Source: an uncultured Chlorobiaceae bacterium | Lineage (GTDB): Bacteria; Bacteroidota; Chlorobiia; Chlorobiales; Chlorobiaceae | NCBI GenBank assembly: GCA_903939765.1 | Contig: CAJAIK010000115.1 | Coordinates: forward strand, 55,871-119,870 | Length of the DNA: 64,000 nucleotides | Direction of reading: 5' to 3' | Part shown: positions 16,179 through 46,336 of the stretch, piece by piece | Layout: every line of letters starts with the position of its first letter | Position numbering within the stretch: the first letter of the stretch is position 1 | The notes under the pieces: model-generated | Seen by the model: the letters and a program-made list of their open reading frames with translations, nothing else | Databases searched by the model: none | What the model was told of the DNA's origin: nothing | Translations under genes and position numbers: made by a program

Positions 16179-18339
<2,161 letters not shown>

Positions 18340-20689: not shown

Positions 20690-20900
20690 CAGGTCTCCTG
20701 ACTTTAACGGCTTGACTCTGTTCCGGGCCTTCCCGCACTTTTCCGAGGAGGAAAGGTGTGCAGTGACCTGAAACGACCCTCAAAAACTTTTGCATGAGGC
20801 CATGCGTTGCTTTTGGGGGTTATCCGTTGTACAGTTGCGGGTACAGTTTACGATTTTCACGTAATTCCCTATTCTCCGGCTTTTAAACCGGCACCAGCTA
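20690..20900 (-). promoter_or_regulatory. Cobalamin (B12) riboswitch
   Basis: The minus-strand reading is GGTGCCGG..AATAGGGAATTACGTGAAAATCGTAAACTGTACCCGCAACTGTA ... GGTCACTGCAC..GTGCGGGAAGGCCC ... AGTCAGGAGACCTGCC. The last element is the B12 box, at 20698-20713. All conserved core elements are in canonical order. Confidence 0.85.
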
Positions 20901-21224
20901 CGAAAGAACAATTGTGGTGCGCCATTTTAAGAAAATTCCCCGATAAAAAAAACAGAGAACAGCATTTATTGCTGATTTTTCCACCCGTTCCGCACATTTT
21001 TTGCCGAACACCCCGGCAAACTCCTGCAGTAAACAACGCGTCATCGATTTTGTCTTCAAACTCGTTGAGACCTCTGTCAGGACTTTGCTTATATTCCGGC
21101 CATTTTTACAGGAACCTCTATAAAGGTGCGCAAGTTCAGACGCACCGTCAGAGTCGGGACAACGCGGCAATGCTGGCGTGCAATAACGTTTTAGAGGTTC
21201 CCATGAGTCATAACGCAATCCTGT

Positions 21225-26123: not shown

Positions 26124-26474
26124 TCAAAAAAAGTACCGTGTTGTTTCCGATGCCTTTCTGTTGAGAGGGTCATGCCCACACAAATCTTTGGATGTCAACT
26201 TCTTTTTGACAACCAGCTTCCGATGTACTCTTTCAAGGAACACCTCTTCTTCACAGGCGATTGACTTGTATCTGTTCTGAAATAGATGGCCGTACCTGTA
26301 ATTGCATCGATTGCAACTGATCGAGTATCCGGCAAGAAACTTCCTCATGAATGCAGAGAGTCCCGGTTGACCGCTTTTGAGAAGGATATGCGCATGATTA
26401 GTCATCAGCGCCAATTTATGCACCGATCTGTCCTTTATATAAGTCATAGATTGGAAAAAACAAATCGGAATCAT
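26124..26474 (-). pseudogene. Fragment of an IS200/REP-associated Y1 transposase (RAYT-like)
   Basis: LMTNHAHILLKSG ... GHLFQNRYKS matches the HUH/Y1 transposase core. The N-terminal half is absent, and the ORF overlaps the 3' end of the 866-aa gene. Confidence 0.6.
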
Positions 26475-29016
26475 TCCAGTTCAAATTTCCATCAATCAAT
26501 GAAAAGCTGGCGAATTTACTTTCGTCCAAATATTTCTTAATCGATGGATGAAGCGATTTTGATAAAAAAGGTTTGAAATCAACAAGTCTTTCATTTCCAT
26601 CGTTAAATCTTATCCGAATTGCATAATCGGACAGATATTTCGCAGAATCAATTTTCAACTTGTCATTATAATCTGTGCATGAGAAATTAAATTTTGTTTT
26701 CCTTTTTTTGCTTGTTTTATACTCATACTGCACACCAAAGCTTACCTTATTTGAACGAAATTTAGATAACTTTTCAAGAAAAAAACTATTTAACTTTTCT
26801 TCATTTGGGTGATTTAAACCTTCGTATTTTAGTTTACATATTATTTGAGTTATTTTATAATTACCTTTACCATGCTCATTATGGCCAGTGATATTTGCCT
26901 TTTCGTTTATTTCTTTTCCATTTGGAATATCCACTGTTATAGACTCTAATACTGGAGCATCGTAAAACACTTTATCTACCTCTTTTTTTCTTCCCCATTC
27001 TTGCGCTGTATCACAATACATTAATAAAAACTCCAGTGGAAACGACTCAAAACAAATATAGCCAATGTTAGTATCCTCTTTAAGCGTTTTATAAGTACAT
27101 GAATTATGCATAGATATTGCTAATGCAGCAAGATATATCTCTACAATTCTTTTACTCGTAGAACCATGATCGCCAATATAGTTACCCTCTATAGTTTTCA
27201 TAAAAAGATTTATTAATAATATGGCGCTTAGCACTCCATGATCTTGGTTGTCCTCTATAGCTTGAATATAATTTTTTAGCAATTCAGTTTTATTCGTCCG
27301 TTTATCTTCATCTTGAGAAACAAAAAATCTTGTCAATTCTGTTATTGTATCAATATAGCTTGCCTTATTTTTCTTACTTGACAAAATGCTTCCCCAATCT
27401 ATATGAACAGGGATATCCGCAAGTAAATTATCTGATATAAATTTTTGCATTGTCTTATCATATTGCTGAAAAATATATGCAATATCATGAAATAGAGCAA
27501 TTAAAACCCATATTCTCAGCACCCCCTCATCATCAATTTCTATTTCTTGATATTCTTCAACATTTTGAAGCCTTTTATTAATCTTTTTCTTTATTTCACC
27601 TATACCAATAGCATTTATAAATATATATCCCATAACAAAAACATGAAATTGATGCATAAAATGATCTCTATATTTTTCTGTACTATATAGCATCAGCTTT
27701 TCATGATCCATAAAATCAATTAATTTTTTCTCTGTAAGATCATAATACTTCTCCATATCAACAGACTTAAAAACATCCTTAATATAAAGCATTGTCCTTA
27801 TCATTATTTCTTCATAACCTATGTATGTGTGTCGTTGGAAAACAAAAAACAAATGTTTTGTCAAATCATAAATCTTCCTATTACCCTTTATTTCTGGATT
27901 TACTTTATTACTGATATTTATTATAGCATCAATCATTTTTTTTCCTTGAAATAATTGATCATAAGAACCTATATCAGTAATTCCAAGACTTACCTCAATA
28001 ACTTGCAAACACAATTGATTTATAACTTTCAACAAATCTTCTTTTCCTTTTATTTCAATAGTATCCGGCGCCTTGTTCATCAACTCACGTATATCTTTAT
28101 ATACTTGATTTCGTCCTTCTTCTGAATCGTTATAATTATCAAGCCTTACAACACCTTTTATTTCATTTGATATATTATCACAAATAGGAATAACAACAAG
28201 CTCTTTACATTTACTGTGTATCCCTCTCTCTGTATCATCATTTTTTCCACGTACCTTAGCACCTATACTATTCGCATTCTTACTGCCATCACTATTTTTA
28301 TCATATATTTGATTCTCTATCATTCTTACACAAATGTTGCGTCTCGCAACCATAGCAGTTATACCTTCTCCTTTTATATGCATAACTTCTTTACCAACTA
28401 TTTTATCTATCTTATCAATGACTATATATTTATTTGGCCTAGTTTCGTAATCATATGTCCAGTGTTGTTTTTTTTCTTTTTTTTCACCATAAGAATCCTC
28501 TACTCCAATGAATTTCAAAACCTTATAAGGAGTATCATTTGCGTCATACACTATTACCCTATTAATGGCGCCAGCAGATTTATCTCTTCCCTTTTCATTA
28601 GTAAAAGTAATTTCAACCAATTCTTTAGTGATTTTTGAATCATCTTCTTCATTAGTAAGCCTGATGATATCGTCTTCTTTGATATCTATTTTTTCATTTT
28701 CAAAAGTAAACGTAAATTTGTGTTCGCTTTCTTGTTTTTCAATTTTCCCTTTTTTACCAGCAAATTCGATTACACCACTTTCATGATGAGAGCCGTTATC
28801 ACCGTTATTAACTTTATATTCGAATATTATTTTCCCCTCTGCAAATCTTTTTTTAAACTCATCTTCTTTTTCGTTTTTATGCATTGAGCCTGGCACTGAA
28901 ATCAAGTATAATGCACACGCATCATAACTAAAATATTTTTTTACTGTTAATAAAAACGATTTTATGGGCTCCCTAATTTCAAACCTTTTGTTCTCAATAG
29001 AAGTCATATTTTTCAT
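26416..29016 (-). CDS. 866-aa multidomain protein: split GAF-like N-domain, HD-superfamily-like central domain, C-terminal DUF2442
   Basis: GAF-like: SYDACALYLIS ... GEGITAMVARRNICVRM ... ELVVIPICDNISNEIKGVVRLDN. HD-like: RDHFMHQFHVF, ALFHDIAYIFQ, DHGVLSA, ISMHN, MYCDTAQEWGR. DUF2442-like: YAIRIRFNDGNERLVDFKPFL...GNLNWNDSDLFFPIYDLY. The gene is strongly AT-rich. Confidence 0.7.
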   Translation of the reverse strand: MKNMTSIENKRFEIREPIKSFLLTVKKYFSYDACALYLISVPGSMHKNEKEDEFKKRFAEGKIIFEYKVNNGDNGSHHESGVIEFAGKKGKIEKQESEHKFTFTFENEKIDIKEDDIIRLTNEEDDSKITKELVEITFTNEKGRDKSAGAINRVIVYDANDTPYKVLKFIGVEDSYGEKKEKKQHWTYDYETRPNKYIVIDKIDKIVGKEVMHIKGEGITAMVARRNICVRMIENQIYDKNSDGSKNANSIGAKVRGKNDDTERGIHSKCKELVVIPICDNISNEIKGVVRLDNYNDSEEGRNQVYKDIRELMNKAPDTIEIKGKEDLLKVINQLCLQVIEVSLGITDIGSYDQLFQGKKMIDAIINISNKVNPEIKGNRKIYDLTKHLFFVFQRHTYIGYEEIMIRTMLYIKDVFKSVDMEKYYDLTEKKLIDFMDHEKLMLYSTEKYRDHFMHQFHVFVMGYIFINAIGIGEIKKKINKRLQNVEEYQEIEIDDEGVLRIWVLIALFHDIAYIFQQYDKTMQKFISDNLLADIPVHIDWGSILSSKKNKASYIDTITELTRFFVSQDEDKRTNKTELLKNYIQAIEDNQDHGVLSAILLINLFMKTIEGNYIGDHGSTSKRIVEIYLAALAISMHNSCTYKTLKEDTNIGYICFESFPLEFLLMYCDTAQEWGRKKEVDKVFYDAPVLESITVDIPNGKEINEKANITGHNEHGKGNYKITQIICKLKYEGLNHPNEEKLNSFFLEKLSKFRSNKVSFGVQYEYKTSKKRKTKFNFSCTDYNDKLKIDSAKYLSDYAIRIRFNDGNERLVDFKPFLSKSLHPSIKKYLDESKFASFSLIDGNLNWNDSDLFFPIYDLYKGQIGA

Positions 29017-29366: not shown

Positions 29367-30428
29367 CTACTCATCGCCCCCCTCCTTCGGCTTCTGCAGA
29401 GACTCGACCTCCTTGAGCATGCGGTCAAAGTCGCTCTCAAAGAGCCGATCCTGAACGATCCGGTACTTTTCAAACTCGCTTTCGGCGTGTGCTCTGGCAA
29501 TTTCTGCTGTTACTTTGCCCGGATCCTGTAAGATCTCACGATCGGTCGCTGCGATGAAGCGATTAAGGCGGGTTTCCCAGTCCTGCATGGTCATGGGCAT
29601 CTTGCGCTGCGCCATGTCCTCGGCAACATCGAGGTATGCCGAAACCAACCGTGCAAGTTGTGCCATTTCGTGTTCTGTCAGGTAATTCTTTGCAACCACA
29701 ACATCGAACTTCTGGATCTTTCCTCCGGGCGCATCCTTCCATGTGGTCAGCCCCATATTCTGTTTTTCGGCATCTGCCCGGTTAAAGATGACCTCCGCTG
29801 CGGTCTGACCATGTATGGCCCAGTGCAGTTTATTCTGCACGGTGGCGAAAAAGCGTTTGGTGGCCTGGGCTGTCACGTCGTAGTCGATGGAGGTTGCATA
29901 GATGTCGGTGACCTTCTGATAGAACTTGCGCTCGGAGAGACGAATCTCCCGAATACGCTGCAACTGCTCTTCAAAATACTGGTCGGTAAGGATGGAGCCA
30001 CCGCTTTTCAGGCGTTCATCATCCATGGCATAACCCTTGATGGTGAACTCCTTAATGATAGAGGTCGCCCACTTACGGAACAGTACGGCACGTTCGGAGT
30101 TTACCTTATAACCGACAGCAATAACTGCTGCAAGACTGTAGTGTTTGGTGTTGTAACTTTTTCCATCGGCGGCAGTTATTCGAAAATTTCGAATAACTGA
30201 TTCCTCCTGTAATTCGTTGTCTGAAAAAACTTTTTTCAGGTGATAGTTGATGGTATGAGTCGCCACATCGTAGAGCGCCCCCATCATCTTCTGGGTAAGC
30301 CAGATATTCTCATCTGCATAAACCGCATCAATGCCGCCAGTGCCGCTGGCAGCGATAAAGGTCAGATATTCAGCCGCCGAGGAGCGGACGATAGAGACCT
30401 CCTTACCTGATTTTTTTCTCCCGCTCAT
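29367..30428 (-). CDS. RhuM-family protein
   Basis: SSAAEYLTFIAASG ... ENIWLTQKMMGALYDV ... YNLDAVIAVGYKVNS-like (here YSLAAVIAVGYKVNSERAVLFRKWAT) is typical of RhuM. I prefer the ATG at 30428 because it is preceded by GAGGGTGAAGG. Confidence 0.8.
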   Translation of the reverse strand: MSGRKKSGKEVSIVRSSAAEYLTFIAASGTGGIDAVYADENIWLTQKMMGALYDVATHTINYHLKKVFSDNELQEESVIRNFRITAADGKSYNTKHYSLAAVIAVGYKVNSERAVLFRKWATSIIKEFTIKGYAMDDERLKSGGSILTDQYFEEQLQRIREIRLSERKFYQKVTDIYATSIDYDVTAQATKRFFATVQNKLHWAIHGQTAAEVIFNRADAEKQNMGLTTWKDAPGGKIQKFDVVVAKNYLTEHEMAQLARLVSAYLDVAEDMAQRKMPMTMQDWETRLNRFIAATDREILQDPGKVTAEIARAHAESEFEKYRIVQDRLFESDFDRMLKEVESLQKPKEGGDE

Positions 30429-30553
30429 GCCTTCACCCTCTTGCCTATCAAAAGGCAAGCCATCGGTTCGCCCTTGAGTGCTGGCTGCATCCCATCGCCA
30501 GAGAAGTGTTTGTTTTCCTCGACATCCAGCTCGGAGAGAGTTTTTTTATCCAT
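30425..30553 (-). CDS. Possible 42-aa upstream ORF translationally coupled to rhuM
   Basis: MDKKTLSELDVEENKHFSGDGMQPALKGEPMACLLIGKRVKA. Its TGA overlaps the rhuM ATG (ATGA). It lies downstream of the promoter-like 15-mer. Confidence 0.3.
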   Translation of the reverse strand: MDKKTLSELDVEENKHFSGDGMQPALKGEPMACLLIGKRVKA

Positions 30554-33026: not shown

Positions 33027-34091
33027 TTACACATTTTTTGGCTTTGGTAGTCTTGATATAGCTTCACCTGCTCCCCTATACAATGGTAATCCTAATAAAT
33101 TCAAAGTTTCACAATGTGTCGGCTCTGGAAATTGATAATTATGTAAATCTTTTGATGCTATGAAAATTAATCTCCTTCTCTTTTGTGGCGTACCATAATC
33201 GGCAGCCAAAAGTTCTCTATGAGTTACCTCATATCCAATTTTATCAAAGGACTGGTAAATCAAGTCTATCATATTAACAGACTTTACCTGCGCCATCCCG
33301 TAAACATTTTCCATAACAACAACTGATGGAGATAAATATGAAACATGGTCAATGAAATTTGAATAAAGCTTACCAAGTTGGTCGCTAACAGCATTTTGTT
33401 TACCCGCAACACTAAACGGTTGGCATGGTGGACCGCCAATAATTATGTCAGGATTTCCACCGACTACCTTTTTCACTGTTTCTGGATCTAGTTTTCTGAT
33501 ATCAGCGAGATGAAAATTCCATTCGGGACGGTTAGTGTCAATAGTTGCTTGTGCCCACTTTTCGATATCAGTACAAAATTTGGTTTCAAATGATATGAAA
33601 TTATCTTTTGCCTGCTCGAAACCTAAGTCAAGTCCACCTGCTCCTGAAAAATATGATGCAATTGTTTTGATTCCACCTTGATTTTTTCGCTCAAAATATT
33701 TAGCAACTGAGCCCGCAATCGCTTTGCCTAAATTAACTGGAACAGCATTTCCAATTTGTTTTTGAATTTGACCTAACGTGCCTTTGAATATCCAGTCATG
33801 TGGAAAATCTTGAAGACACGCGGCCTCTCTTGGGGTTATATAACGGTCTTCGGTTGGATGAACAAACTTGTTAAATATAAAAGCCGTGACTGTTAAGGAA
33901 GGTTTGTCCTTCTCTAATCTTAAAAGTCGCATGTTTGGCCCACCTGTTTTTTTATCTCCTTTTCTTTCGAAGCTTTCATGTTGGAGATGTTTGGGAAGAT
34001 CTCCCATCTTACCCCCAGGAGCCAAATGCTTTATCCTTTCTAAAACAAGACCTGAATACTCTCTTGTAATATGATTTGGTATTTCCTTCAT
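33027..34091 (-). CDS. DNA (cytosine-5)-methyltransferase with circularly permuted motif order
   Basis: The order along the protein is a TRD-like region, IX (RYITPREAACLQDFP), X (GNAVPVNL), then I (FSGAGGLDLGF), IV (GGPPCQPFS), VI (ENV) and VIII (QKRRR). Confidence 0.85.
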   Translation of the reverse strand: MKEIPNHITREYSGLVLERIKHLAPGGKMGDLPKHLQHESFERKGDKKTGGPNMRLLRLEKDKPSLTVTAFIFNKFVHPTEDRYITPREAACLQDFPHDWIFKGTLGQIQKQIGNAVPVNLGKAIAGSVAKYFERKNQGGIKTIASYFSGAGGLDLGFEQAKDNFISFETKFCTDIEKWAQATIDTNRPEWNFHLADIRKLDPETVKKVVGGNPDIIIGGPPCQPFSVAGKQNAVSDQLGKLYSNFIDHVSYLSPSVVVMENVYGMAQVKSVNMIDLIYQSFDKIGYEVTHRELLAADYGTPQKRRRLIFIASKDLHNYQFPEPTHCETLNLLGLPLYRGAGEAISRLPKPKNV

Positions 34092-35203
34092 ATTTCTTTT
34101 CCGCCTTGGATTGAATCTGTTAAGTTAATGATATAATCAAAAACATATCTCAAGTCTTCTCGTTTTAGATATGTCAAGGATTTATCAGTTACTAAATCTC
34201 CTTCGTTGCCCCATAGCATACCTTTAAATGGATCTACATAAACTTCCCCATGCCGCAACGCTGGTAAGTTAGAGATTATGGCAGTTTTAACATTTTGATG
34301 TTTGTATTTTGTGCCAATCTTAAGAACCTGATAAATACCTTTTTTGATATCATCAGTTCGATCCATTCCAGCGCTAGTTTTGCTGTCACTAATTGATTCT
34401 CCTTGTGGCCATCCATCCTTTTCCTTGGCAACGTTTGGCGGTGCCCCTGAAGCATTCGCTAAATAATAAAACTTAGAAGTTCTATCCTTTTCGGCATATG
34501 CGACTTTAGTTTTTTGCCAAATTTTGAATGAGGATTCAAGTTCTTTTAAGTTACCTTTATCTTCTAAATGATCTGCAAAGGGTTTAAATGGCCAATTTTC
34601 AGATTTGACTTTACCTAAGTGGATATATGATTTGTCGTGTAGATAGATAGCAGAGTTTAATTCTCTGAACTGTGAACTTGTTAATGATATTTTGGAGTGA
34701 GCAAGATTTGTAGTTTTGGGAATTTGAAATAGAAGTGGAAACGTGAGTAATGGTGCAGATTTTACTTCCGCTAAAATTACGAAGCCATTTTTATGTTCTA
34801 TTAATGCATCTGCAACTTCTGTCCCTCCAATAGCGAAAACGCATTTAAAATCGTCAAATAAAATCTCAATAAATTTTAGAATCATTTCGCTGCTTAGTTT
34901 GCCCAAAGCACCCGATTGCGGTTTTGCAGCTTTTTGATAAGTCCATGTTTCATTCTTTTCATAACAAGGACTGCATAGATTTATAAAACCCAAATGGGCA
35001 TTATAACTTTCCGGGCACGAAGGACAGGTTTCAACATATTTTTCAATTCCCGATGTTGAGTCGATAAAAGCAAGTGACATGCAGATGTCAAAAATAAAGG
35101 CTCTGTATTCTGGCGGTTTACTTTTAGTCCACTTGATTATTCGCACAGCATCATCATGCCATGGATATTCTTTGAGGGGTACTTTTTTATTCAGTTCTTC
35201 CAT
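34088..35203 (-). CDS. Putative type II restriction endonuclease (PD-(D/E)XK-like)
   Basis: 371 aa. Its stop overlaps the methyltransferase start (ATGA). There is a candidate D...E-x-K motif (VADALIEHKNGFVILAEVKS). I recognise no other family. Confidence 0.5.
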   Translation of the reverse strand: MEELNKKVPLKEYPWHDDAVRIIKWTKSKPPEYRAFIFDICMSLAFIDSTSGIEKYVETCPSCPESYNAHLGFINLCSPCYEKNETWTYQKAAKPQSGALGKLSSEMILKFIEILFDDFKCVFAIGGTEVADALIEHKNGFVILAEVKSAPLLTFPLLFQIPKTTNLAHSKISLTSSQFRELNSAIYLHDKSYIHLGKVKSENWPFKPFADHLEDKGNLKELESSFKIWQKTKVAYAEKDRTSKFYYLANASGAPPNVAKEKDGWPQGESISDSKTSAGMDRTDDIKKGIYQVLKIGTKYKHQNVKTAIISNLPALRHGEVYVDPFKGMLWGNEGDLVTDKSLTYLKREDLRYVFDYIINLTDSIQGGKEI

Positions 35204-37156: not shown

Positions 37157-37211
37157 TGTCTGTCTGTCTTTAAGCTTGCCCATAACTCCTTTATATATGC
37201 ACCGTATCACA

Positions 37212-37262
37212 CTCAAAGGTGTATAAAACCAGCTATTTTGTCATGCTTTATACACCTTTGAG
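37212..37262. repeat. Perfect 16-bp inverted repeat (CTCAAAGGTGTATAAA / TTTATACACCTTTGAG) with a 19-nt loop
   Basis: Seen directly in the sequence. It sits between the recombinase stop (37277) and the first cassette-like gene. No T-tract follows it on the minus strand. Confidence 0.6.
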
Positions 37263-37276
37263 GTGAATAATATTTT

Positions 37277-38731
37277 TTACAAATTATCAAAGGGGCTGGA
37301 AATTTTTAGTAAACTCTGTTCGCATACATGGGTATAGATTTCTGTCGTCTTACTGCTCTTATGCCCTAAGAGCTCTTGTATGTATCGAAGATCAGTTCCC
37401 GCTTCCAGTAAATGTGTTGCATAAGAGTGCCGCAACCAATGAAGCGTTACTGGTTTTTTGATTTTTGCATGATCGAGTGCATGTTTTAACACTTTTTGCA
37501 AGCTGGTTTCGCTGTACTGTGTACCAGGTTCTTGACCCTCAAACAACCAAATCCTGGGGCGATATATTTTATAATATTCCCGCAACATTACAATCACTTT
37601 GTCCGATATGGGAATGACTCTGTCTTTTTTTCCTTTTGCATTGACTATTATCAATAAATGCCTTTTCGCATCAACATTCTCAGGTTTGAGATTCAACAAC
37701 TCTCCCCGTCGAAGACCACAGGCATAAATCAAGCTCAACATCGTACGATGTTTGAGGTTCTGTGATGCATGAAGTATAGCTGCAACATCCTCCTTGCTCA
37801 GCACGTTGGGCAGCTTATGTTCTGGTCTTGGCCGCTCGATCTGTTCTGTTATGAGCTTTGAACCTTGAATTGTTTTGAAAAACAATCTTGCTGCGTTAAC
37901 GGTCTGGTTTTGATATGATTGGCTTAACTTCTTCGGTAGCATAAACTGGTGAACGAATCGCACCATATCATCGTTGGTCGCTTCGGTACTCCTTTTGGGT
38001 TTAATAAACCTCAAAAAAGTGGTAATGGCTTGTGTATAGGTCTTTATCGTTGATTCGCTGTATCGCTTGTGCTCCATCCACTGTTTGAAGGCGGCAATTT
38101 CATCATGGTTGACTTTGTCCAACAACGGCAAATCGGTAATAACTTCGTTTGCCGGGTAGTTCAATTTCGGATTTTGCGGTAGCGCAATTACGGTTTTTAT
38201 ATTTGTGATACGCTGACCAAAGTAATTTCTTAACAAGTCAATATTTTTGCCGTAGTTCGGTATGACCCAGCAAAAATTATTGCTGTTCCACCTCACATAT
38301 TTGAAGGTACGAATGAACTGTATATCCGTCTCATTCTTAGGCATTGTAACGGTAATTTGTTTCGGGGATATTTCGATAGCGATTCCGTTGTGTTGCGTAA
38401 CATTTTGCAGATCTGCTTTTATCGCAGTTTTCACTTCAGATTGCGCCTTTACCGAAGGTGCTGGCACCGGTGGTTCATTGGTAGCTTCCGTTAGCTCTTC
38501 GGTACCTGACTTATTTGTTGAACCTGCAGGATCTGGTACGACTATATCCGGAAATAGCTTCATAAATTCGCCAAAAGCTTCCTCGGTGAACGGGATATGC
38601 CAAGCTCTGAGTGTCTTGCTCCAGGCAGCGCCTTCAATATGTCTTATCTTATTTATAATGAAATCATTATAGGCAAATACGAGTTTCAACCGATCCTCGC
38701 CCCGGTAATTTATTTTGCTGGTCTGAATCAT
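37277..38731 (-). CDS. Tyrosine recombinase/integrase (Xer-like catalytic domain with a ~290-aa N-terminal extension)
   Basis: It has the catalytic residues ACGLRRGE (R), KGKKDR (K), HWLRHSYATHLL (H-x-x-R) and LLGHKSSKTTEIYTHV (H, Y). The N-terminus holds two similar units (AAWSKTLRAWHIP and RWNSNNFCWVIP). The gene is AT-rich. Confidence 0.9.
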   Translation of the reverse strand: MIQTSKINYRGEDRLKLVFAYNDFIINKIRHIEGAAWSKTLRAWHIPFTEEAFGEFMKLFPDIVVPDPAGSTNKSGTEELTEATNEPPVPAPSVKAQSEVKTAIKADLQNVTQHNGIAIEISPKQITVTMPKNETDIQFIRTFKYVRWNSNNFCWVIPNYGKNIDLLRNYFGQRITNIKTVIALPQNPKLNYPANEVITDLPLLDKVNHDEIAAFKQWMEHKRYSESTIKTYTQAITTFLRFIKPKRSTEATNDDMVRFVHQFMLPKKLSQSYQNQTVNAARLFFKTIQGSKLITEQIERPRPEHKLPNVLSKEDVAAILHASQNLKHRTMLSLIYACGLRRGELLNLKPENVDAKRHLLIIVNAKGKKDRVIPISDKVIVMLREYYKIYRPRIWLFEGQEPGTQYSETSLQKVLKHALDHAKIKKPVTLHWLRHSYATHLLEAGTDLRYIQELLGHKSSKTTEIYTHVCEQSLLKISSPFDNL

Positions 38732-38975: not shown

Positions 38976-39773
38976 TCACGCCCCCGTCTTCACCGGTAAC
39001 ACCAGCCGGAATCCCCGGAAATCGTTAACCGCTTTGGAAACAACAAACGAGCGCTGCGAACAGCGGAAGGCGAACTTGTCGGGATAACGCCAGCAGCCGC
39101 CACGTTCCTGGCGGAGAGATTCTTCACCGGAGGTGATGTTTGCGGAATCGGTTTCTTCGTGCCAGACGGAACACCACTCCATGACGTTGCCGCTCTGGTT
39201 CCAGGTTCCGTAGCCGGAGACCCCTTCGGGATAGGCGTAGGCCGGGGCAACAGAATCCGCCCCCCGGTTGTTCCGGTTCCGACAGTTGTTTTCATCCCAC
39301 CGGTCTCCCCACGGGTAGATTGATCCTTCCGGCCCGCGTGCGGCCTTTTCCCACTCGGCTTCCGTGGGCAATCGGCATCCCGCCCAGCGGGCGTAGGCTT
39401 CTGCGTCGTCCCAGTTGATGAGCACGACCGGGTAATCGTCGAACTCTTCGGGACAGCCATCTTCGTGCCAGACCGAAAGTGAGTCAATCCTTGCGCCGAT
39501 GTTTGGTGGCCGATGGCCCGTAGCCTGTATGAAAGCCCTGTACTGGCGATTGGTGACGGCATAGACTGAAATGTAGAATGCGTCCAGGCAGACGGTGTGC
39601 TGCGGGCTCTCTTTGTCGAAGCCGTCTCCCATGGTGAAACTTCCTGCGGGAACAAGCACCATGGGAGAACTGTCCTGTTCGTTGACGATTACCGGAGGCA
39701 GCTTGCCGCCGGAAGGACGGAGCGCGAGTCTTCTGAGTTCGGTAAGGATTTCGTTATGTGCTGGTGTATTCAT
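38976..39773 (-). CDS. FGE-sulfatase (SUMF1/EgtB/PvdO) fold protein, cytoplasmic
   Basis: MVLVPAGSFTMG, YAVTNRQYRAFI, INWDDAEAYARWAGCRLPTEAEWEKAARG, GNVMEWC and RGGCW...FRGFRLV match the fold. It has no signal peptide. I prefer the ATG at 39773. Confidence 0.8.
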   Translation of the reverse strand: MNTPAHNEILTELRRLALRPSGGKLPPVIVNEQDSSPMVLVPAGSFTMGDGFDKESPQHTVCLDAFYISVYAVTNRQYRAFIQATGHRPPNIGARIDSLSVWHEDGCPEEFDDYPVVLINWDDAEAYARWAGCRLPTEAEWEKAARGPEGSIYPWGDRWDENNCRNRNNRGADSVAPAYAYPEGVSGYGTWNQSGNVMEWCSVWHEETDSANITSGEESLRQERGGCWRYPDKFAFRCSQRSFVVSKAVNDFRGFRLVLPVKTGA

Positions 39774-39795
39774 AGTACACTGTGTTCTCTTGTTT

Positions 39796-41328
39796 CTATG
39801 ACGCTGCCAAAGCATTCCGGTCGTCTGAGGCGTTGCGCGCCTGTCCGTTTACGACCATCGTCCTCAACTGTTCGATGTGCTCTTGATGTGATGCCGAAAG
39901 GGGAACCATCTCTGCGGCTGCGTTGAGAAGATCCTCCGTTTCCAGTTCCCGGCGGTTGTCGCGGAATGCGGGAAACATGGCATCGTTGACCAGCGCCTGA
40001 AGTTCGGCGCCGACGAACCCCTCGGTTGCCGATGCAACCGCGGCAAGGTTGAAGCGCTGCGAAAGCATGGTATAGCCGCGTTCCCTGAGGTGGACTTCGA
40101 GTATTTTTATCCGCTCGCCGTGGGTGGGAAGATCGAGGAAAAAGACCTCGTCAAACCGGCCTTTGCGCAGGAGTTCCGGGGGAAGACGCCGAACGTTGTT
40201 GGCGGTGGCGAATACGAATACCGGGGCAGTTTTTTCCTGCATCCAGGTAAGAAAGGTCGCAAAGACCCGGCTTGCCGTGCCGCTGTCGCCCATGGAGCCG
40301 GCAAAGGCTTTTTCGATCTCGTCAACCCAGAGCACGCAGGGAGCGATGACCTCGGCAATCCGGATGGCTTCGCGAATATTCTGTTCGCTCGAACCGAGCA
40401 GACCGCTGAAGATGGCTCCGACATCCATTCTCAGCAGCGTCATCCCCCAGTGGCCTGCGGTTACTTTTGCACAGAGGCTTTTTCCGGTTCCGGGAATCCC
40501 GATGAGAGCCACCCCCTTCGGCATGCTGAGGCCATATTCGCGCGCATCCTGGCTGAACGCTTCCTGGCGCTCGTCGAGCCACCCCTTCAGAGCGCCAAGT
40601 CCGCCGACGTTGTTCATGGATCCGGTATAGGGGTAGAGTTCGAGAGCGCCGCTTTCGCGGATGATGTGACGTTTTTCGTTCAGCACCTGCCGGACGCTCC
40701 GTTCGTCGAGCCCATGGCCTCCTGCAACCACGATGGCTTTGCGAAAGGCCCTTCCCGCTTCGACGATGGAGAGGCCGAGCGCACTTTCGACCAGACGTTC
40801 GCGCAAACCGTGCGTGGCGTTTTCAAGCGATCGCGTCGAGCGGGTTTCCCGATCGAGCAGTTCGAGAATCTGTTTGCCGTCGGGCTTGCCGACATCGATG
40901 GTTGGTATGTCGTGACGGAGTTCGACGGGAAGCGCAAACTGGGGGCTGGTGATGATGATGTTCACCGTTTCGCTGCGGAAAGGAAGACGCGATGCGAGGT
41001 TCCGCAGCATGCGCGAAACACGTCGGCTATGTTCCCAGAAATGGTGGAAGTCTTTGAGCACGAATGTTGCGGAGCCCTTGTAGTCGTCGATGATGTCGAG
41101 CACCGATTCCGGGGTGGCGGCAAGTTTGCTGAAGGTTGACGCTGGTTCTCGCAGGTGGCGGAACTGGTCGCCGATATCCCAGGTGATGAGCCCCATGCCT
41201 TCAGGCCACCGGGCTGATTGCGACCAGCCGGAAAGAGTGCGCATGGCATCCTCTTCATCGATGGTTGCGAGGTGTATGACGGCTACCCGCGCGTCAACAT
41301 TCAGTTTGAGTTCGTCGAGCCAGGCCAT
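39796..41328 (-). CDS. Classical-clade AAA+ ATPase with a unique ~240-aa N-domain
   Basis: Walker A GIPGTGKS, Walker B CVLWVDEIEKAF, sensor-1 FVFATANN and the RKGRFDEVFFLDLP arginine-finger region. Confidence 0.85.
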   Translation of the reverse strand: MAWLDELKLNVDARVAVIHLATIDEEDAMRTLSGWSQSARWPEGMGLITWDIGDQFRHLREPASTFSKLAATPESVLDIIDDYKGSATFVLKDFHHFWEHSRRVSRMLRNLASRLPFRSETVNIIITSPQFALPVELRHDIPTIDVGKPDGKQILELLDRETRSTRSLENATHGLRERLVESALGLSIVEAGRAFRKAIVVAGGHGLDERSVRQVLNEKRHIIRESGALELYPYTGSMNNVGGLGALKGWLDERQEAFSQDAREYGLSMPKGVALIGIPGTGKSLCAKVTAGHWGMTLLRMDVGAIFSGLLGSSEQNIREAIRIAEVIAPCVLWVDEIEKAFAGSMGDSGTASRVFATFLTWMQEKTAPVFVFATANNVRRLPPELLRKGRFDEVFFLDLPTHGERIKILEVHLRERGYTMLSQRFNLAAVASATEGFVGAELQALVNDAMFPAFRDNRRELETEDLLNAAAEMVPLSASHQEHIEQLRTMVVNGQARNASDDRNALAAS

Positions 41329-41404
41329 GCTGCGTTAAGTTTTTCTTGTTTAGCCATCAGGGCATCTCTTAAAATTGTCATGAGCGGTTCGAGTGAGCTG
41401 TCCA

Positions 41405-43024
41405 TCAGAGTTTCACCACCGGCAGATCGCTTACCGGCAACGGAAGTCGCGAGCCGTCCCGCAACAGGATCCAGGAACGATTGTTCTCCTCCGTATCCCG
41501 CAGCCAGAGCGTGAGGCGGCGGTTGCTGTCTACCCCGAATCCTGCTATAAAGCGCCGCTCTCCCGAACGGCAGGGCGGCACGGCATGGATGAACTCGCTG
41601 TCTTCGGGATTGAGGGGCTTATGCCGACTCTCCTCTCGCTCCCCTTCCCGTACCGGACGAAGCCCGTCGGCCCCGTTGACATAGGAGATCAGCGGGCGGC
41701 TCATCGACGACCGCTCATAGATAACCAGCCCGAGCGTATCCTGATGGTCCGAAGCGGCCTTGATATATTTGCTGCATACCGGTTTCCCTGTCGGGTAAGG
41801 GGTACCGCGTGGAACGACGGGAACCAGTTCGAAATCCCGAAGTTCCCGGTTCCAGCTCCGCAGACAGTAATCGTGAGTCAGCGTCTGGTCGAAGATACCG
41901 CCATCGAAGCGGCATGCCCCTCTGGCAATGGCTTCGAACGGATTACCGGCATGGACGTCGCTGAGGGGAAAGAACTCCCGGATTTTCTCTTCGATGCCGG
42001 GCAGCAGGCTGCTTCCCCCCACAAGAAAAATCCCCTTGAGTTCCTCCTTGCGGATGCCGGCCCTGTCGCGTGCCTGATCGAGAGCGCGGTCGAGCGTGCG
42101 GATGATGTGCTGGTAGAGGTTGTTCCTGTCCGGCTCCCGTTTTTTTTCAAGCGCCTCCTTCAGGTTGCGGGAAGTGAGCGTGACCTCGATGAGTCGGCCG
42201 GTAAAATCGTTATAGCGGGTGAAGGATGCTTGCTCGCTGCCGTTCGAGATAGCAATTTTCGCCTGCTCAATCGCTTCGAGCAGGGAGGGGCCGATCGAGG
42301 CGATATCGTCATCGGTGAGCTTCTCCTCTTCCTGGATATGTTCCAGCAGCCAGTTATCGATCATAATCCCGCCAATCTCCTCGCCAGCCCGGCCCAGTAT
42401 TCTGCATTTCGCATGTCCGGCACGCAGCAGATCGGTACGAACGACCGAAACATCGAGAGTGCCTCCGCCGAAATCCACGATGCAGTAGGGTTCGCGGTCG
42501 AGAACATGATCGATGTAACCGAGCATACAGGCGGTTGCTTCGTCGATGAAGGTGATCCCGCCCGGAAACCGTTTTATCGCCGCTTCGCGAAGCCAGTCGA
42601 TATAGTGATCGAAGGCTTCGACAGGGACTGTCAGCACAACTTCCTCATCGATGTCGCCGAAATAGCCGCGCACAAACATCAGGATGCGGTCGACGAGCGT
42701 GTCTGCTGCATGGCGGGGGTAAATAACCCTGCCATTGACGCGCCGCCCGCGATTGGCACCACCGTTACGAAGCATATCCATTTTCAGCCATCTGAACGTA
42801 CCCGGATGATTGGCAACTCCCGCTGCGTCAACCTGGCTGCCGACAAGAAGAGCGCTCTCCACGGCGAAATGAATGACGGAGGGAATAACCCGCGCAGGCT
42901 CCGATCCCGGCTGCGGATAGAAGATTCCGAGGTTGGGCAGGTCGGGAGTCTCTATGTCGTTCAGGGCTTCGTTCCAGCGTGCGACCACGCTGTTGCATGT
43001 CCCGAAATCAAAAGCGAGAGCCAT
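41405..43024 (-). CDS. Hsp70-family (DnaK-like) ATPase, divergent and lid-less
   Basis: AFDFGTCNSVV (phosphate 1), IVDFGGGTLDVSVV (phosphate 2) and FLVGGSSLLPGI (adenosine). The C-terminal ~150 aa are only loosely SBD-beta-like and there is no helical lid. Confidence 0.8.
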   Translation of the reverse strand: MALAFDFGTCNSVVARWNEALNDIETPDLPNLGIFYPQPGSEPARVIPSVIHFAVESALLVGSQVDAAGVANHPGTFRWLKMDMLRNGGANRGRRVNGRVIYPRHAADTLVDRILMFVRGYFGDIDEEVVLTVPVEAFDHYIDWLREAAIKRFPGGITFIDEATACMLGYIDHVLDREPYCIVDFGGGTLDVSVVRTDLLRAGHAKCRILGRAGEEIGGIMIDNWLLEHIQEEEKLTDDDIASIGPSLLEAIEQAKIAISNGSEQASFTRYNDFTGRLIEVTLTSRNLKEALEKKREPDRNNLYQHIIRTLDRALDQARDRAGIRKEELKGIFLVGGSSLLPGIEEKIREFFPLSDVHAGNPFEAIARGACRFDGGIFDQTLTHDYCLRSWNRELRDFELVPVVPRGTPYPTGKPVCSKYIKAASDHQDTLGLVIYERSSMSRPLISYVNGADGLRPVREGEREESRHKPLNPEDSEFIHAVPPCRSGERRFIAGFGVDSNRRLTLWLRDTEENNRSWILLRDGSRLPLPVSDLPVVKL

Positions 43025-43118
43025 TAATTCAAACGGTTATCCTGATCATGAATGCAATCATGCGTCTGCCCGGGCCTTTGCCACTATTTTCGCTCATATC
43101 GTGAGTCGGGTTTTCTGT

Positions 43119-44474
43119 TTACCACTCCACATCCGTCAGTTCCTCGGTCTCCACGGCATTTTTTTCTGTTGCGTCGTCATTACTGTCGACGGTGATCAGA
43201 CCGCGAAGAAAATAGCCCTGCAGGACTTTGAGCAATTGCAGGAGTTTATGCTGTAGCTCTGCCGACTGATCAGCCGGTCCGGCACCGGCATGAACTCTTC
43301 CGGACAGTGAGCTGCTCTCTTCAAGCGAACCAGGCAAGCGTGTCGTCAGTATGGCGGCCACGATATTGTCCTGTGGCTGGAGCCAGCAGACATGCTCCTG
43401 ACGGGAGCTTGCATCCGGCACGGTAAACAGGTACTGAAGCGCGAGTTTTTCAGGCCACGTGCCGTTCAGGGAGATCTCCTGCAGCCTGTTGCGGGGAATC
43501 GATCCGCGCTGCACACCTGAAAAGAGTGCGCCGGCCCGTCTGAAAGGGTCCGGGCTTGAGAGATCCTGCTGCAGCAGTTCGTCCGTTCGATGCTGTTCCG
43601 TCCAGAAAGAGAAAATATCTCTTGTGCCGGGCAGAGCGGAGGGTCGGGATTCCGGTATAAGCCCGGCCAGTTCACGATAAAGAGCGACAGAGTGCTCGAC
43701 AACGGCTTTTTTTGAGGGACTTTTTGGCCTTCCGCCGCCCTCTTCCCAGAACGCGATAACCTCGAGCGCAGAGGTGAAGGGCAAGCCATGCAGCCGGTCG
43801 AGCAGTGCGTCGTGATCCCCGCAGAGTTTAAGGGCCTCGATGACCAGTTGCGGGTCATGCCCCTCCTTGACGGCATGATCGTAAGCTGCGACAAGCCGGG
43901 GATCCTGACTTTTCAGGACTGTTGTGCTGATACGCTGCCTCTGGGCGCCGGAAGCGGCAAGCCAGGCTTTTTCAAAAATGGAGTAATCGGGATCTTCAAG
44001 ATCGAGGTAGCGCCCCGGATTGCCTCGCACAAGCCCGAAAAGGGTATCCATTTCAAGAGCGGGGGCATGGCGACCATTCGCTTCTATCATGTCGGCGATT
44101 TCGTCCCGGTCAAGGAGAGTCCAGAGCATGAACACAAGGCCGTTGCCCCAGTCGTTTTCCGGCATGGCAACGAGGGCCTGCAGAAGATCCGGCTGAAGCG
44201 TTTCGGAAGAGTGCGTCCTCTTCAGCAGCTCTTCGAAGCGACACGATTTCCAGTAGTTCCACAGAGCGCTGTGCATGACTGGCTCGTTGCCATGCTGCAA
44301 AAGCAAAAGACGCTGGAATATCGTATCTGCTTCCGGATGCCCCTCTTCTACCGCGCGCGCCAGCTTGACCGCAGCATCCCGGCTATTGCTCGAAAAAAGG
44401 CGTTCCACCGCCCTCTTCCTGAGGATGCTGCCGAGGAGAGGGGTTGTGGCGAAAAGGTGTTTTTCTGCTTGCAT
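43119..44474 (-). CDS. Helical-repeat (HEAT/ARM-like) hypothetical protein, first gene of the Hsp70-like operon
   Basis: A ~450-aa Leu/Ala-rich helical sequence with an acidic tail, EELTDVEW. Candidate starts are the ATG at 44474 or the upstream ORF start at 44525. Confidence 0.55.
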   Translation of the reverse strand: MQAEKHLFATTPLLGSILRKRAVERLFSSNSRDAAVKLARAVEEGHPEADTIFQRLLLLQHGNEPVMHSALWNYWKSCRFEELLKRTHSSETLQPDLLQALVAMPENDWGNGLVFMLWTLLDRDEIADMIEANGRHAPALEMDTLFGLVRGNPGRYLDLEDPDYSIFEKAWLAASGAQRQRISTTVLKSQDPRLVAAYDHAVKEGHDPQLVIEALKLCGDHDALLDRLHGLPFTSALEVIAFWEEGGGRPKSPSKKAVVEHSVALYRELAGLIPESRPSALPGTRDIFSFWTEQHRTDELLQQDLSSPDPFRRAGALFSGVQRGSIPRNRLQEISLNGTWPEKLALQYLFTVPDASSRQEHVCWLQPQDNIVAAILTTRLPGSLEESSSLSGRVHAGAGPADQSAELQHKLLQLLKVLQGYFLRGLITVDSNDDATEKNAVETEELTDVEW

Positions 44475-44641
44475 TACTGATCCGGCGTCAATGAATGATC
44501 GAGTAAGGGAGTATACATATATCACTCTTACTTAAGCAAATTACAGGGCTAAACTTTGACAGGGTTCCCAACGGAATCTGTTTGCATGAACTTCATTCTG
44601 TCACTCGACGGTAATATGTAAACCAGTGAGCGGGATGCAGA

Positions 44642-46336
44642 TTAACTCTCCACCGCAGTCATGATGCTGCCCGCAATACTCTTGCAGTAATGATGAACCT
44701 GTTCGAACAGGTTGATGAGTTCCATGTGGATATTGTGGGTCAGCTCTGCTTCGCGAATATGGAAGACTCTTTTCAAGTGGGCGGTTTCAGCCTGTGCCAC
44801 CAGCCGTTTAAACCGCTCATCACCCTGAAGAAGCTGGCCCGCTTTCTGTGCATCCATCTTCTTCAGAGCATCGGCAAGATGATCAATTTCAAGACAGACA
44901 AGACGGTGTATCTCCATAAGCTCATCTTTGCCCTCCTGGCTCAAATCGCTCTCCACTCCCTGTTTTTTGTTGAACAGTTTTTCTTCAAGAGTCTCAATAA
45001 CATCGCCGATGGATTCCAGCCCCTTGATAATGTTCATGAGAGCGAAAACCTCCCTCGACTCCTGTTCGCTGAGGGAACTGCGGCTGATTTTGATGAGATA
45101 ATCGGAGATACGGGCTTCAAGAAAGTCAAGTTTCTCTTCTCTCATGCTCATACCCTTGACCACGGAGAGTTTTGGAAACACCACATCATGGCCGGGATCG
45201 GTGCTGAGAAAGGGATAGAGTGATGCGTGCACCATTTTTGCGGCAATGCTGCCCATCCTTGCCACTTCAGCCTTGACATAACCAAGAGCCAGTACAGGGG
45301 TAGAGAGAGCCGCCTCTTTCAGATACCAGGCTGCGGGAATAAGCCTTGTCTCCTGCTGGTCGTCCGGAAGAAGCCGGTAAAGCAGCCGGTCGAAGGGCAC
45401 AAGGAAGGGAAGAATAAGAAATGCCATGGCGATATTGAGCAGTGAATGGGCATTGGCAATCTGTCGGGGCACCTCAAGCGCAAACTTCTCGGCACCCACG
45501 CCCTCTGCTGAAGGCGAAATAATGCGAATAAATTCGGCAAGCTGTGGAATGAAAAGGAAAAAAATGAGCACTCCGGTCACATTAAAGAGCACCTGCGCCA
45601 GCGCAACCCTCTTTGCCGCACGATGCATTCCGGCACTTGCCAGCACTCCCGTTATACAGGTGCCTATGTTGGCGCCAAGCAGCAATGCAATCCCGGCTTC
45701 AAGACTCAACGCGCCTTGCAAGGCCAGCGTTATAAGGATACCAATAAAAGCCGCACTGCTGTGCATCAGGGCGGTCAAGGCCATGCCCGCGGCAACACCA
45801 AGAAATGGATTGTCGAGATAACGCAAGAGAGAGAGAAAGGGCGCAAAACGCTCAAGAGGTGCGACCGCCTCCGACATGACCTTCAGCCCGAAAAAAAGGA
45901 GGCCGAATCCCGAAAGTGCCTCGCCGGTGAAACGGAGGGGTTCCGTTTTTCCCAATGAACTCAAGGCAAATCCTGAGGCAAAAATGATCAGGGCATAATC
46001 GTGCAGCCTGAAGGCAACAAGCTGAGCCATGGCCGTTGTCCCGATTTCAGCACCAAGAATGACGGCCAGCGATTGTGTGCTGGTCATAAGCCGGGATTGC
46101 ACCAGACCAACAAGGATCGCGATAATGGTGCTGCTGCTCTGAACAACCATGGTGGCAAACGCTCCGGCAAACATCCCGTACAAACTGTTGCCGGTTACCT
46201 TTGATATCAACTGTCGCATCCGTGTCCCCGACGCCTTTTTCAGGCCGCTGCTCATCAGCCTGATGCCATAGAGAAAAAGCGCCAGCCCCCCGGCAAAGAG
46301 AATGGCTATGCCGCCGAGCGAAAGTGTTTCATTCAT
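44642..46336 (-). CDS. Na/Pi cotransporter family protein with C-terminal PhoU-like domains
   Basis: 564 aa. The N-terminal half is polytopic with duplicated Na_Pi_cotrans-like repeats (QSSSTIIAILVGL; HSSAAFIGILITL). The C-terminal half is helical and PhoU-like. Confidence 0.8.
   Translation of the reverse strand: MNETLSLGGIAILFAGGLALFLYGIRLMSSGLKKASGTRMRQLISKVTGNSLYGMFAGAFATMVVQSSSTIIAILVGLVQSRLMTSTQSLAVILGAEIGTTAMAQLVAFRLHDYALIIFASGFALSSLGKTEPLRFTGEALSGFGLLFFGLKVMSEAVAPLERFAPFLSLLRYLDNPFLGVAAGMALTALMHSSAAFIGILITLALQGALSLEAGIALLLGANIGTCITGVLASAGMHRAAKRVALAQVLFNVTGVLIFFLFIPQLAEFIRIISPSAEGVGAEKFALEVPRQIANAHSLLNIAMAFLILPFLVPFDRLLYRLLPDDQQETRLIPAAWYLKEAALSTPVLALGYVKAEVARMGSIAAKMVHASLYPFLSTDPGHDVVFPKLSVVKGMSMREEKLDFLEARISDYLIKISRSSLSEQESREVFALMNIIKGLESIGDVIETLEEKLFNKKQGVESDLSQEGKDELMEIHRLVCLEIDHLADALKKMDAQKAGQLLQGDERFKRLVAQAETAHLKRVFHIREAELTHNIHMELINLFEQVHHYCKSIAGSIMTAVES

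Follow-up and report, generated by a model that had tools for sequence, protein, structure and literature searches.

The question raised by this locus is what an Hsp70-like ATPase, an AAA+ ATPase, a protein with the fold of formylglycine-generating enzyme (FGE) and a large helical protein are doing side by side in the genome of an uncultured, Chlorobium-like bacterium of the Chlorobiaceae. The four genes lie within a 64,000-nucleotide stretch of contig CAJAIK010000115.1 (assembly GCA_903939765.1, positions 55,871 to 119,870 of the forward strand), and we refer to this whole analysed stretch as the window and number positions from its first letter. The first-pass annotation, made from the sequence alone, had taken the genes for a self-contained module of an FGE-fold sensor, two ATPases and a scaffold in a mobile and defence context, and this description holds as far as comparative genomics goes. 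The module is conserved as a unit across phyla, its FGE-fold subunit is diversified by a retroelement in some relatives, and on sequence grounds we would read it as a receptor-guided chaperone/unfoldase conflict system with the FGE-fold protein as the receptor, a reading that we regard as about evenly balanced between right and wrong.

An open reading frame (ORF) scan of the window returned all four module genes on the minus strand and in the same direction, as had been claimed. In coding order, the first gene (43119-44474, minus strand) encodes a 451-aa all-alpha solenoid, here called HEL, which is a putative scaffold or adaptor. Its ORF is also open to an upstream GTG at position 44525, and the ATG start is preferred because 451 aa is the length of nearly all of its homologues. 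The second gene (41405-43024, minus strand) encodes a lidless Hsp70-like ATPase of 539 aa (PF00012, E 1e-19), the third (39796-41328, minus strand) an AAA+ ATPase of 510 aa (PF00004, E 2e-28, together with AAA_lid_3), and the fourth (38976-39773, minus strand) a protein of the FGE/C-type-lectin fold of 265 aa (PF03781, E 5e-50), a putative ligand receptor. The Pfam searches thus returned all three of the domains, HSP70, AAA and FGE-sulfatase, for which a profile check had been suggested. For the FGE-fold gene, an alternative upstream ATG at 39815 would give a protein of 279 aa, and close homologues align from the MNTP... start (alignment from tblastn-derived coordinates). The intergenic gaps within the module are 94, 76 and 22 nt; the last two had been given correctly, and the first had been put at 93 nt. 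A sigma-70-like match at 44595-44622 on the minus strand (consensus scan, 9/12 matches plus a TG extension) is a candidate operon promoter, in a consensus scan that was weak overall (4 sites found against 2.4 expected) and a promoter and terminator scan that was uninformative. No signal-peptide-like or transmembrane hydrophobic stretch is present in any of the four proteins.

Both ATPases look catalytically competent, judging from their sequences. The family profile of the Hsp70-like protein, built from 14 sequences, aligns to DnaK residues 6-423, a span made up of the nucleotide-binding domain, the linker between the domains and the first strands of the beta part of the substrate-binding domain (SBD-beta); the protein ends after a beta domain, with the alpha-helical lid absent. 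The catalytic positions D6, K81, E162, D184 and T189 are invariant in the family alignment, the motifs DFGTCNS, DFGGGTLD and LVGGSSLLPG are all present, and family members are 43-50% identical across phyla. The initial description of this protein as an ATPase with intact motifs and no lid therefore stands, but it had overlooked the SBD-beta substrate-binding domain, which is present. It had also called the protein an orphan, which is true of the window, where the module has no GrpE gene, but which is a derived state, as most relatives, other Chlorobiaceae included, carry GrpE directly upstream of the Hsp70 gene. The 94-nt gap between the HEL and Hsp70 genes is a clean deletion of GrpE relative to other Chlorobiaceae, which retain the gene that the lineage of the window has lost. 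That the relatives carry a GrpE of their own speaks for a genuine Hsp70 cycle.

The AAA+ protein consists of an alpha/beta N-domain (residues 1-230) and an active module of the classical clade, similar to the D2 module of Cdc48/p97, at approximately residues 235-500. Its nearest solved relatives are Cdc48, VAT and p97 (E down to 1e-58). Walker A (GIPGTGKS), Walker B (VDEIE), sensor 1 (ATAN) and the arginine fingers (RKGRFD) are invariant in 24 AAA+ homologues, and the window protein has all of the corresponding motifs, i.e., GIPGTGKS, LWVDEIE, ATANN and RKGRFD, as first annotated. The accompanying claim of a single module behind a unique N-domain needs correction in its second half. The AlphaFold2 model (pLDDT 76) shows an alpha/beta N-domain followed by a helical subdomain, and in Foldseek the full chain aligns to the D1-D2 arrangement of p97, Cdc48 and Rix7 with E of about 1e-18 and a TM-score of only about 0.4. 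The model thus suggests that the N-domain resembles a degenerate D1 AAA module. This resemblance is limited to the level of the fold because the N-terminal and C-terminal halves of the protein share no sequence signal: comparing them with hhalign yielded no similarity (E 0.39), and sequence proof of a degenerate AAA module in the N-domain was rejected on that result.

Relatives of this N-domain are also found outside the module. They occur on plasmids of Bacillus, Paenibacillus, Clostridium, Planktothrix and Geminocystis, and one (30% identity, E 1e-13) is encoded inside a contractile-injection-system locus of Treponema succinifaciens. As an observation in its own right, a small 4Fe-4S/radical-SAM (NrdG-like) gene adjoins the N-domain-bearing AAA gene in the two such loci that were opened, on a Bacillus cereus plasmid (L089, 6056-9865) and on a Treponema succinifaciens plasmid (L090, 7333-9488), in both cases with no Hsp70 or FGE gene and no glycyl-radical enzyme nearby. 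Only a generic COG name in JGI annotations suggests a link between the AAA protein and the plastid and cyanobacterial protein Ycf46.

Aligned to the FGEs of Streptomyces coelicolor and human, the FGE-fold protein has no CxxxxC catalytic pair (C336/C341 in the human enzyme). The position of LCHDSYC in the S. coelicolor enzyme is occupied by WRYPDKFA in the window protein, whose cysteines are at 62, 107, 133, 164, 201, 227 and 238, no two of them spaced by four. This alignment and the hydrophobicity check bear out the early statement that the protein lacks both the cysteine pair and a signal peptide. What the protein does resemble is the variable protein of a diversity-generating retroelement (DGR): it matches TvpA (2y3c) with E 1.8e-7, and its C-terminal RGGxW...GFRLV scaffold aligns with the proven variable regions of a relative in an Accumulibacter metagenome-assembled genome (MAG; locus L043).

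HEL was predicted by AlphaFold2 to be an alpha-solenoid of about 26 helices (pLDDT 80.7, pTM 0.70) with residues 426-451 disordered. It has no match in Pfam, NCBIfam or PADLOC, and Foldseek retrieved only non-specific, weak matches to ARM, HEAT and alphaRep structures (best E 0.09). The prediction agrees with what had been written of this gene, namely a protein of about 450 aa, all-helical, with the acidic tail EELTDVEW. The disordered C-terminal tail is acidic and ends in an aromatic residue (AVETEELTDVEW), and HEL homologues from different lineages share both a conserved N-terminal motif and a common tail of the form A[VI]E[VI]-EDAxxxx[FW]-COOH. From this pattern, the tail has the look of a peptide for docking or recognition. 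HEL proteins are rare: of 1.84 billion clusters at 50% identity, 109 representatives belong to the family. Separately, a conserved G-H-P-[DE] motif between two helices of HEL looked like that of a J-domain; hhalign with two HEL alignments gave no signal for a J-domain, the motif is absent in the HEL proteins of two relatives (L022 and L030), and the candidate was rejected.

Whether the four genes form a unit was assessed by scanning the Hsp70 alignment against one genome per species, which yielded 80 loci. For co-occurrence, we used the 18 orthologous loci with at least 4 kb of upstream and at least 5 kb of downstream flank and, as a control, 18 loci around a 30%-identical cyanobacterial Hsp70 paralog (drawn from L045-L080). 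AAA and HEL are both encoded in 18/18 of the orthologous loci, FGE in 16/18, GrpE in 9/18 and a radical-SAM protein in 6/18, and none of the control loci (0/18) carries any partner gene. The earlier suggestion to look for co-occurring partners was thus answered by neighbours conserved across phyla. The cyanobacterial paralogs themselves were rejected as members of the system, since they are standalone genes; the neighbours in one of them, L062, are unrelated.

The full-flank loci come from Chlorobiaceae, Beta- and Gammaproteobacteria and Planctomycetota, with shorter contigs adding five further lineages; among the loci are Chlorobiaceae, Chromatiaceae, Burkholderiales/Nitrosomonadales, Magnetococcales, Pirellulaceae, Verrucomicrobia, Oligosphaeraceae, Fimbriimonadaceae and Gemmatimonadaceae. 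In tblastn searches, the four genes were found together in Chlorobiaceae, Chromatiaceae, Pirellulaceae, Rhodoferax, other Betaproteobacteria and Accumulibacter. The same searches showed a Gemmatimonadaceae locus whose contig stops before AAA, and Verrucomicrobia and Fimbriimonadaceae loci with Hsp70, AAA and FGE and no HEL, the upstream flank there being short. Gene order is not fixed, being permuted to HEL-FGE-Hsp70-AAA in the Rhodoferax and betaproteobacterial loci. A separate case is a Chlorobium MAG labelled C. chlorochromatii (L008), in which tblastn detected no HEL upstream of Hsp70 (8001), although 8 kb of flank were available; the locus may have only three genes or may have exchanged its scaffold.

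Some relatives are larger than the window module. Their loci add GrpE directly upstream of Hsp70, an NrdG/PflA-like radical-SAM activase, a second AAA paralog that is often fused to an N-terminal Ser/Thr kinase, and DUF1257 and DUF2997 genes by a third AAA paralog. The DUF1257 (Ycf35) and DUF2997 genes stand by one AAA paralog in L020, L032, L033, L083, L087 and L088. Sporadic, non-core extras also occur, such as a PD-(D/E)xK protein in L022 and a DUF559 gene in L083. By gene content, the four genes of the window are a reduced form of this larger system, with fixed specificity and no GrpE, radical-SAM, kinase-AAA or DGR component.

The larger loci also carry between one and four FGE paralogs each, and it is in these that the FGE-fold subunit varies. 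In L022, L032, L033, L036 and L037, the paralogs have a near-identical body and clustered dinucleotide differences in the C-terminal variable region, and the paralogs of the Accumulibacter locus L043 are hypervariable too. The latter locus contains a complete DGR inside the Hsp70/GrpE/AAA operon, in which a reverse transcriptase and an accessory gene of the HRDC type accompany a single template repeat (3424-3566); its three variable regions (4407-4549, 7162-7304 and 16455-16576) are situated at the 3' ends of three standalone FGE genes. Mismatches between template and variable regions fall at template adenines in 27/28, 22/23 and 15/15 cases, respectively. Other DGR accessory genes are a bAvd gene in L032 and an HRDC gene in L031. 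The FGE subunit thus behaves, on the sequences of the relatives, as a variable receptor of the DGR type, with the copy in the window fixed, and both the paralog diversification and the full DGR of L043 strengthen a sensor role for the FGE fold. A DGR-active copy in the window itself was rejected: nothing in the window repeats the FGE 3' end, genes for a reverse transcriptase, HRDC or Avd are missing from it, and the variable region is fixed in Chlorobiaceae. Outside the FGE 3' ends, L022 also has a 54-nt intergenic direct repeat (13010-13063 and 15849-15901) with 11 mismatches, 10 of which coincide with adenines in one of the two copies.

The genomic surroundings of the module are those of a mobile element or a defence region in several of the loci. 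One case is plasmid pPg_01 of Pseudanabaena galeata (L087, 11444-19601), where GrpE and Hsp70 (34% identity) come first and are followed by DUF1257, two inserted genes, DUF2997 and AAA. The AAA protein is 45% identical to that of the window over its full length, N-domain included, and the two genes inserted between DUF1257 and DUF2997 make up the candidate defence system HEC-02, an ABC/SMC-like ATPase with a 167-aa partner (E 3e-148 and 4e-67). After AAA, at the place of FGE, the plasmid encodes a WD40 protein, and more WD40 and HEAT proteins as well as toxin-antitoxin pairs surround the locus. Judged by position, the WD40 protein in place of FGE appears to be a sensor swap. On chromosomes, the module of Chlorobium limicola DSM 245 is followed by an integrase remnant of 64 aa and by SMODS, SLATT and patatin genes, with an upstream flank unlike that of the window, and in L083 a PIN/MazE pair, a Y1 transposase and a Tc-toxin gene are found near the module. 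In the literature, a population study of Ca. Chlorobium antarcticum (PMC8620254) has a figure on regions of low coverage and variable presence, and the legend of this figure names dnaK, grpE, fge and an AAA ATPase.

In the window itself, the FGE gene is directly followed downstream by an intact tyrosine integrase (37277-38731, minus strand; PF00589 with a SAM-like N-domain), which forms the edge of an AT-rich island with restriction-modification and RhuM genes, and the other flank is a Na/Pi cotransporter (44642-46336). These are the two flanks that the first-pass annotation had named. The module has a GC content of 57.6% (63-68% at third codon positions), compared to 47.5-48.6% in the chromosomal flanks and 38.5% in the adjacent island. 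A comparison of window 37170-37510 with L004, L007, L008, L009, L010 and L081 showed that in several relatives only the last 330 nt or so of the integrase remain beside FGE, with differing cargo beyond, and this stretch looks like a recurrent integration hotspot in which the integrase decays. On the other side, four close relatives (L001, L002, L005 and L006, at about 6330-6540) keep just residues 417-492 of the Na/Pi cotransporter, between an SRPBCC-like gene and HEL. Because only this fragment is left in close relatives, the cotransporter by the module is variably present. The flanks of the module thus differ among Chlorobiaceae, and its position changes from genome to genome: integrases, CBASS-like genes or toxin-antitoxin pairs adjoin it in some, and it also occurs on a plasmid. 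The GC contrast, the differing flanks and the variably present regions of Ca. Chlorobium antarcticum are signs of horizontal transfer.

Other features of the window belong to the AT-rich block. Its cargo includes a RhuM-family gene (29367-30458, minus strand), a C5 cytosine methylase gene (33027-34091, minus strand) and an ORF of 371 aa with no Pfam match (34088-35203, minus strand) that overlaps the stop of the methylase gene and possibly encodes the restriction enzyme that goes with it. An ORF of 866 aa (26416-29016, minus strand), whose sole Pfam match is a C-terminal DUF2442, lies at the block's far edge. The only Rfam match within the window is a Cobalamin riboswitch at 20671-20913 on the minus strand (86 bits, with a gathering score of 31.5).

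The module is conserved across phyla yet patchy, with gene order and placement that vary, a GC anomaly, carriage on a plasmid, defence genes within and beside it, expanded paralogs, DGR diversification and an exchange of the binding module; features of this kind are the usual signature of a conflict system. If the module is one, the FGE/C-type-lectin-fold protein would be a cytoplasmic receptor for a specific macromolecule, for which a protein of an invader is the most plausible candidate. The lidless Hsp70 would engage the receptor-ligand complex, cycled by its dedicated GrpE in the ancestral forms, and a hexameric Cdc48-like AAA+, in which a D1-like ring that is probably inactive would precede the active D2-type ring, would engage the complex too. 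HEL would hold the assembly together, probably via its conserved acidic C-terminal tail, and the system would act by using ATP to remodel or unfold either the bound target or one of its own components. The hand-over from DnaK to ClpB and the cargo-specific AAA+ protein Pvc15 (PMC11495950) provide analogies for such a mechanism. We infer an invader origin of the ligand, a single complex of the four proteins and unfolding as the effector step; this output step is a guess because no recognisable toxic effector or effector-associated domain is present in the core. A more far-reaching version, receptor-plus-unfoldase immunity in which the chaperone machinery itself is the effector and its specificity can be reprogrammed by a retroelement, seems unlikely to us. 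We are similarly doubtful of the picture that would come with unfolding as effector, namely that receptors are DGR-hypermutated, germline-fixed or replaced by WD40 proteins depending on lineage and that captured invader proteins are unfolded and dismantled, which would join antibody-like recognition to a non-suicidal proteostasis arm.

Several observations weigh against a conflict system of this kind. All four proteins are 56-97% identical across Chlorobiaceae species, many species of the family have the module, and across 20 Chlorobiaceae sequences there is hardly any change in the segment equivalent to the DGR variable region (RGGCWRYPDKFAFRCSQRSFVVSKAVNDFRGFRLV); a fixed receptor with a conserved core fits a fixed-ligand or housekeeping role as well as it fits immunity. 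Among approximately 25 non-Chlorobi loci, a template repeat was found in the fetched DNA of only one, L043. No nuclease, protease, pore-former or NADase is encoded in the conserved core, and pore loop 1 of the AAA+ protein, G-[LVIT]-L-G, is non-aromatic where it aligns with M-W-F-G of Cdc48 D2. A J-protein partner was found neither in the Pfam and NCBIfam results for the module nor by comparing HEL to a J-domain profile, and across the relatives PADLOC returned only generic IetA, PD-T4-6 and viperin-like matches to AAA, kinase and radical-SAM domains. Moreover, the DUF1257 (Ycf35) and DUF2997 genes of the larger loci form a conserved cyanobacterial cluster with ferredoxin 7 (PMC4284462); as these genes are of a housekeeping type in cyanobacteria, the toolkit may come partly from ordinary physiology. 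The same conservation, fixed variable region and cyanobacterial genes, along with the Ser/Thr kinase fusions to the AAA paralog and the lack of a toxic effector in Pfam scans of the locus genes, speak for a non-immune regulatory or stress-sensing proteostasis module, in which the FGE-fold protein senses a cellular or environmental ligand, Hsp70 and AAA+ (and the kinase-AAA of larger versions) remodel a host client or transduce a signal, and the DGR tunes regulation. Tuning of regulatory pathways has been suggested as a role of DGR targets in cyanobacteria. Such a module is harder to reconcile with the patchy distribution, GC anomaly, variable position and plasmid carriage, with the embedded HEC-02 and the toxin-antitoxin, CBASS-like and restriction-modification neighbours, or with the WD40 swap, and we consider it an improbable explanation on balance.

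The chaperone genes could instead serve the lectin-fold proteins, Hsp70, GrpE and AAA+ being a dedicated folding and quality-control set for proteins whose own function bypasses the ATPases. The co-occurrence of the chaperone genes with up to four DGR-diversified FGE paralogs, the peptide-binding SBD-beta domain of the Hsp70 and the presence of AAA-family relatives in a contractile-injection-system locus, a type of system whose analogous ATPase Pvc15 is a cargo chaperone and loader (PMC11495950), all speak for this. Yet the association is retained in Chlorobiaceae in spite of their fixed variable region, and also in the plasmid variant with WD40 instead of FGE, and parts of the DGR literature describe the C-type-lectin fold as tolerating variable-region change unaided; we find this quite unlikely. 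In window-type Chlorobium lineages, FGE is immediately followed by the integrase or by what is left of its 3' end, and the other flank varies, which would also suit cargo that serves the adjacent integrative element, through maintenance, anti-defence or exclusion of rivals, instead of the host. The base composition of the module is far from that of the island, however, other Chlorobiaceae and other phyla have the module but not this integrase, and phage records encode no relative of it, which makes this very unlikely in our view. An ordinary heat-shock set or a sulfatase-maturation locus, finally, is scarcely credible, the public names of the proteins ("molecular chaperone DnaK", "AAA family ATPase", "FGE") being generic and all that favours it. 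A canonical DnaK/DnaJ/GrpE set was rejected because the Hsp70-like protein scores 71.8 bits against the DnaK equivalog TIGR02350, whose cut-off is 822, and has no lid, the window has no GrpE, and no CIRCE element was found at the locus with up to 3 mismatches allowed; DnaJ is likewise missing from the module Pfam and NCBIfam results and from the J-domain comparison. Across NCBIfam, all module proteins fall far below the cut-offs for DnaK, HscA, FtsH, Cdc48, PAN, EgtB and PvdO. Formylglycine generation for sulfatase maturation was rejected in the same way, there being no cysteine pair, no signal peptide and, in a search limited to signatures, no sulfatase signature (PS00523, or a loose CxPxR....[TS]G) in any frame of the 64-kb window. 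These negatives confirm the early judgement that the locus is neither of the two and, at the level of signatures, agree with the statement that no sulfatase gene is present in the window.

Should the receptor-guided conflict reading be true, it would introduce a new effector logic, ATP-driven protein remodelling, in place of the nucleases, NADases, pores and proteases of known systems, and an unfoldase effector linked to DGR-rewritable receptors would be the closest bacterial parallel to hypermutating antigen receptors. Cytoplasmic standalone lectin-fold DGR targets would gain a concrete downstream machinery, and an ATPase core that stays constant while its receptor is either FGE or WD40 suggests a device for programmable protein targeting. 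If the module is not immune, it would still be a rare private Hsp70/GrpE/AAA+ chaperone system, some of whose accessory genes, DUF1257 (Ycf35) and DUF2997, have conserved relatives in cyanobacteria.

How the module relates to systems already described is best seen by comparing its parts. The earlier remark that it matches no named defence system agrees with PADLOC v2.0.0, in which the window module matches only a generic AAA model, IetA, and with searches of the open-access literature, in which no account of this gene set was found. The likeness to IetAS is confined to the AAA protein: the IetA model of PADLOC matches only its generic core (residues 262-488, E 7e-23), the protein scores 70.8 bits against the IetA equivalog NF042959 with a cut-off of 510, and the module has no IetS protease gene. 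Another comparison is with CnuD of the type III CoCoNuT systems (PMC11090510), in which a lidless Hsp70-like protein with nucleotide- and substrate-binding domains is paired with a helical-repeat module in a predicted defence role. However, the partners of CnuD are HEPN RNases, a McrB-type GTPase and McrC homologues, and its Walker-like motifs are degenerate, whereas the ATPase residues of the window Hsp70 are intact and its helical protein is a separate gene product with no detectable similarity to known repeat families. No McrB, McrC (DUF2357) or HEPN partner appears among the Pfam results for the module, its flanks or the related loci.

Two chaperone systems resemble the ATPase pair. Similar to DnaK-GrpE with the disaggregase ClpB/Hsp104, the larger relatives encode an Hsp70 and its exchange factor together with a ring AAA+, suggesting hand-over to an unfoldase. 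In contrast to ClpB, the AAA+ protein belongs to the classical Cdc48/FtsH clade, not Clp/Hsp100, and has one active module and the non-aromatic pore loop; the Hsp70 has no lid and falls well short of the DnaK model score, no J-protein was found, and the set travels with lectin-fold receptors in mobile contexts. The second, Pvc15/Afp15, is an AAA+ of the classical clade whose D1 is catalytically deficient and whose D2 is active; it acts as a substrate-specific chaperone, unfoldase and loader (PMC11495950). The window AAA+, of the classical clade too, would resemble it in D1 and D2 if its N-domain is a degenerate D1 module, and a relative of this N-domain is encoded in the Treponema succinifaciens injection-system locus, next to a small 4Fe-4S/radical-SAM gene. 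Unlike Pvc15/Afp15, the window protein is shorter and has no extra N domain, and no injection-system genes are present in the window or the orthologous loci.

The nearest systems overall are those in which FGS (FGE-fold) domains, coupled to NTPases and DGRs, are proposed to sense invaders inside the cell, i.e., the NTPase-FGS and DGR-linked ternary systems of Kaur, Burroughs, Iyer and Aravind (PMC7159879, PMC8195603). The window system shares with them a non-catalytic FGE-fold sensor combined with NTPases and, across its relatives, frequent DGR diversification, multiple paralogs and a mobile, patchy context. In those systems, however, the FGS domain forms a fusion with either a STAND NTPase or the vWA component of MoxR-vWA systems, with effector-associated domains and explicit effectors, and Hsp70 appears in those papers only in GTPase/tubulin systems. 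Pfam found no STAND, vWA, MoxR, effector-associated domain or canonical effector among the four window proteins or the conserved extras; the FGE-fold protein is standalone, and the NTPases are an Hsp70, with GrpE in relatives, and a classical AAA+ similar to Cdc48. We therefore class the gene set among the NTPase-centred conflict systems with FGS sensors, from which it differs in its NTPase core of lidless Hsp70/GrpE and Cdc48-like AAA+.

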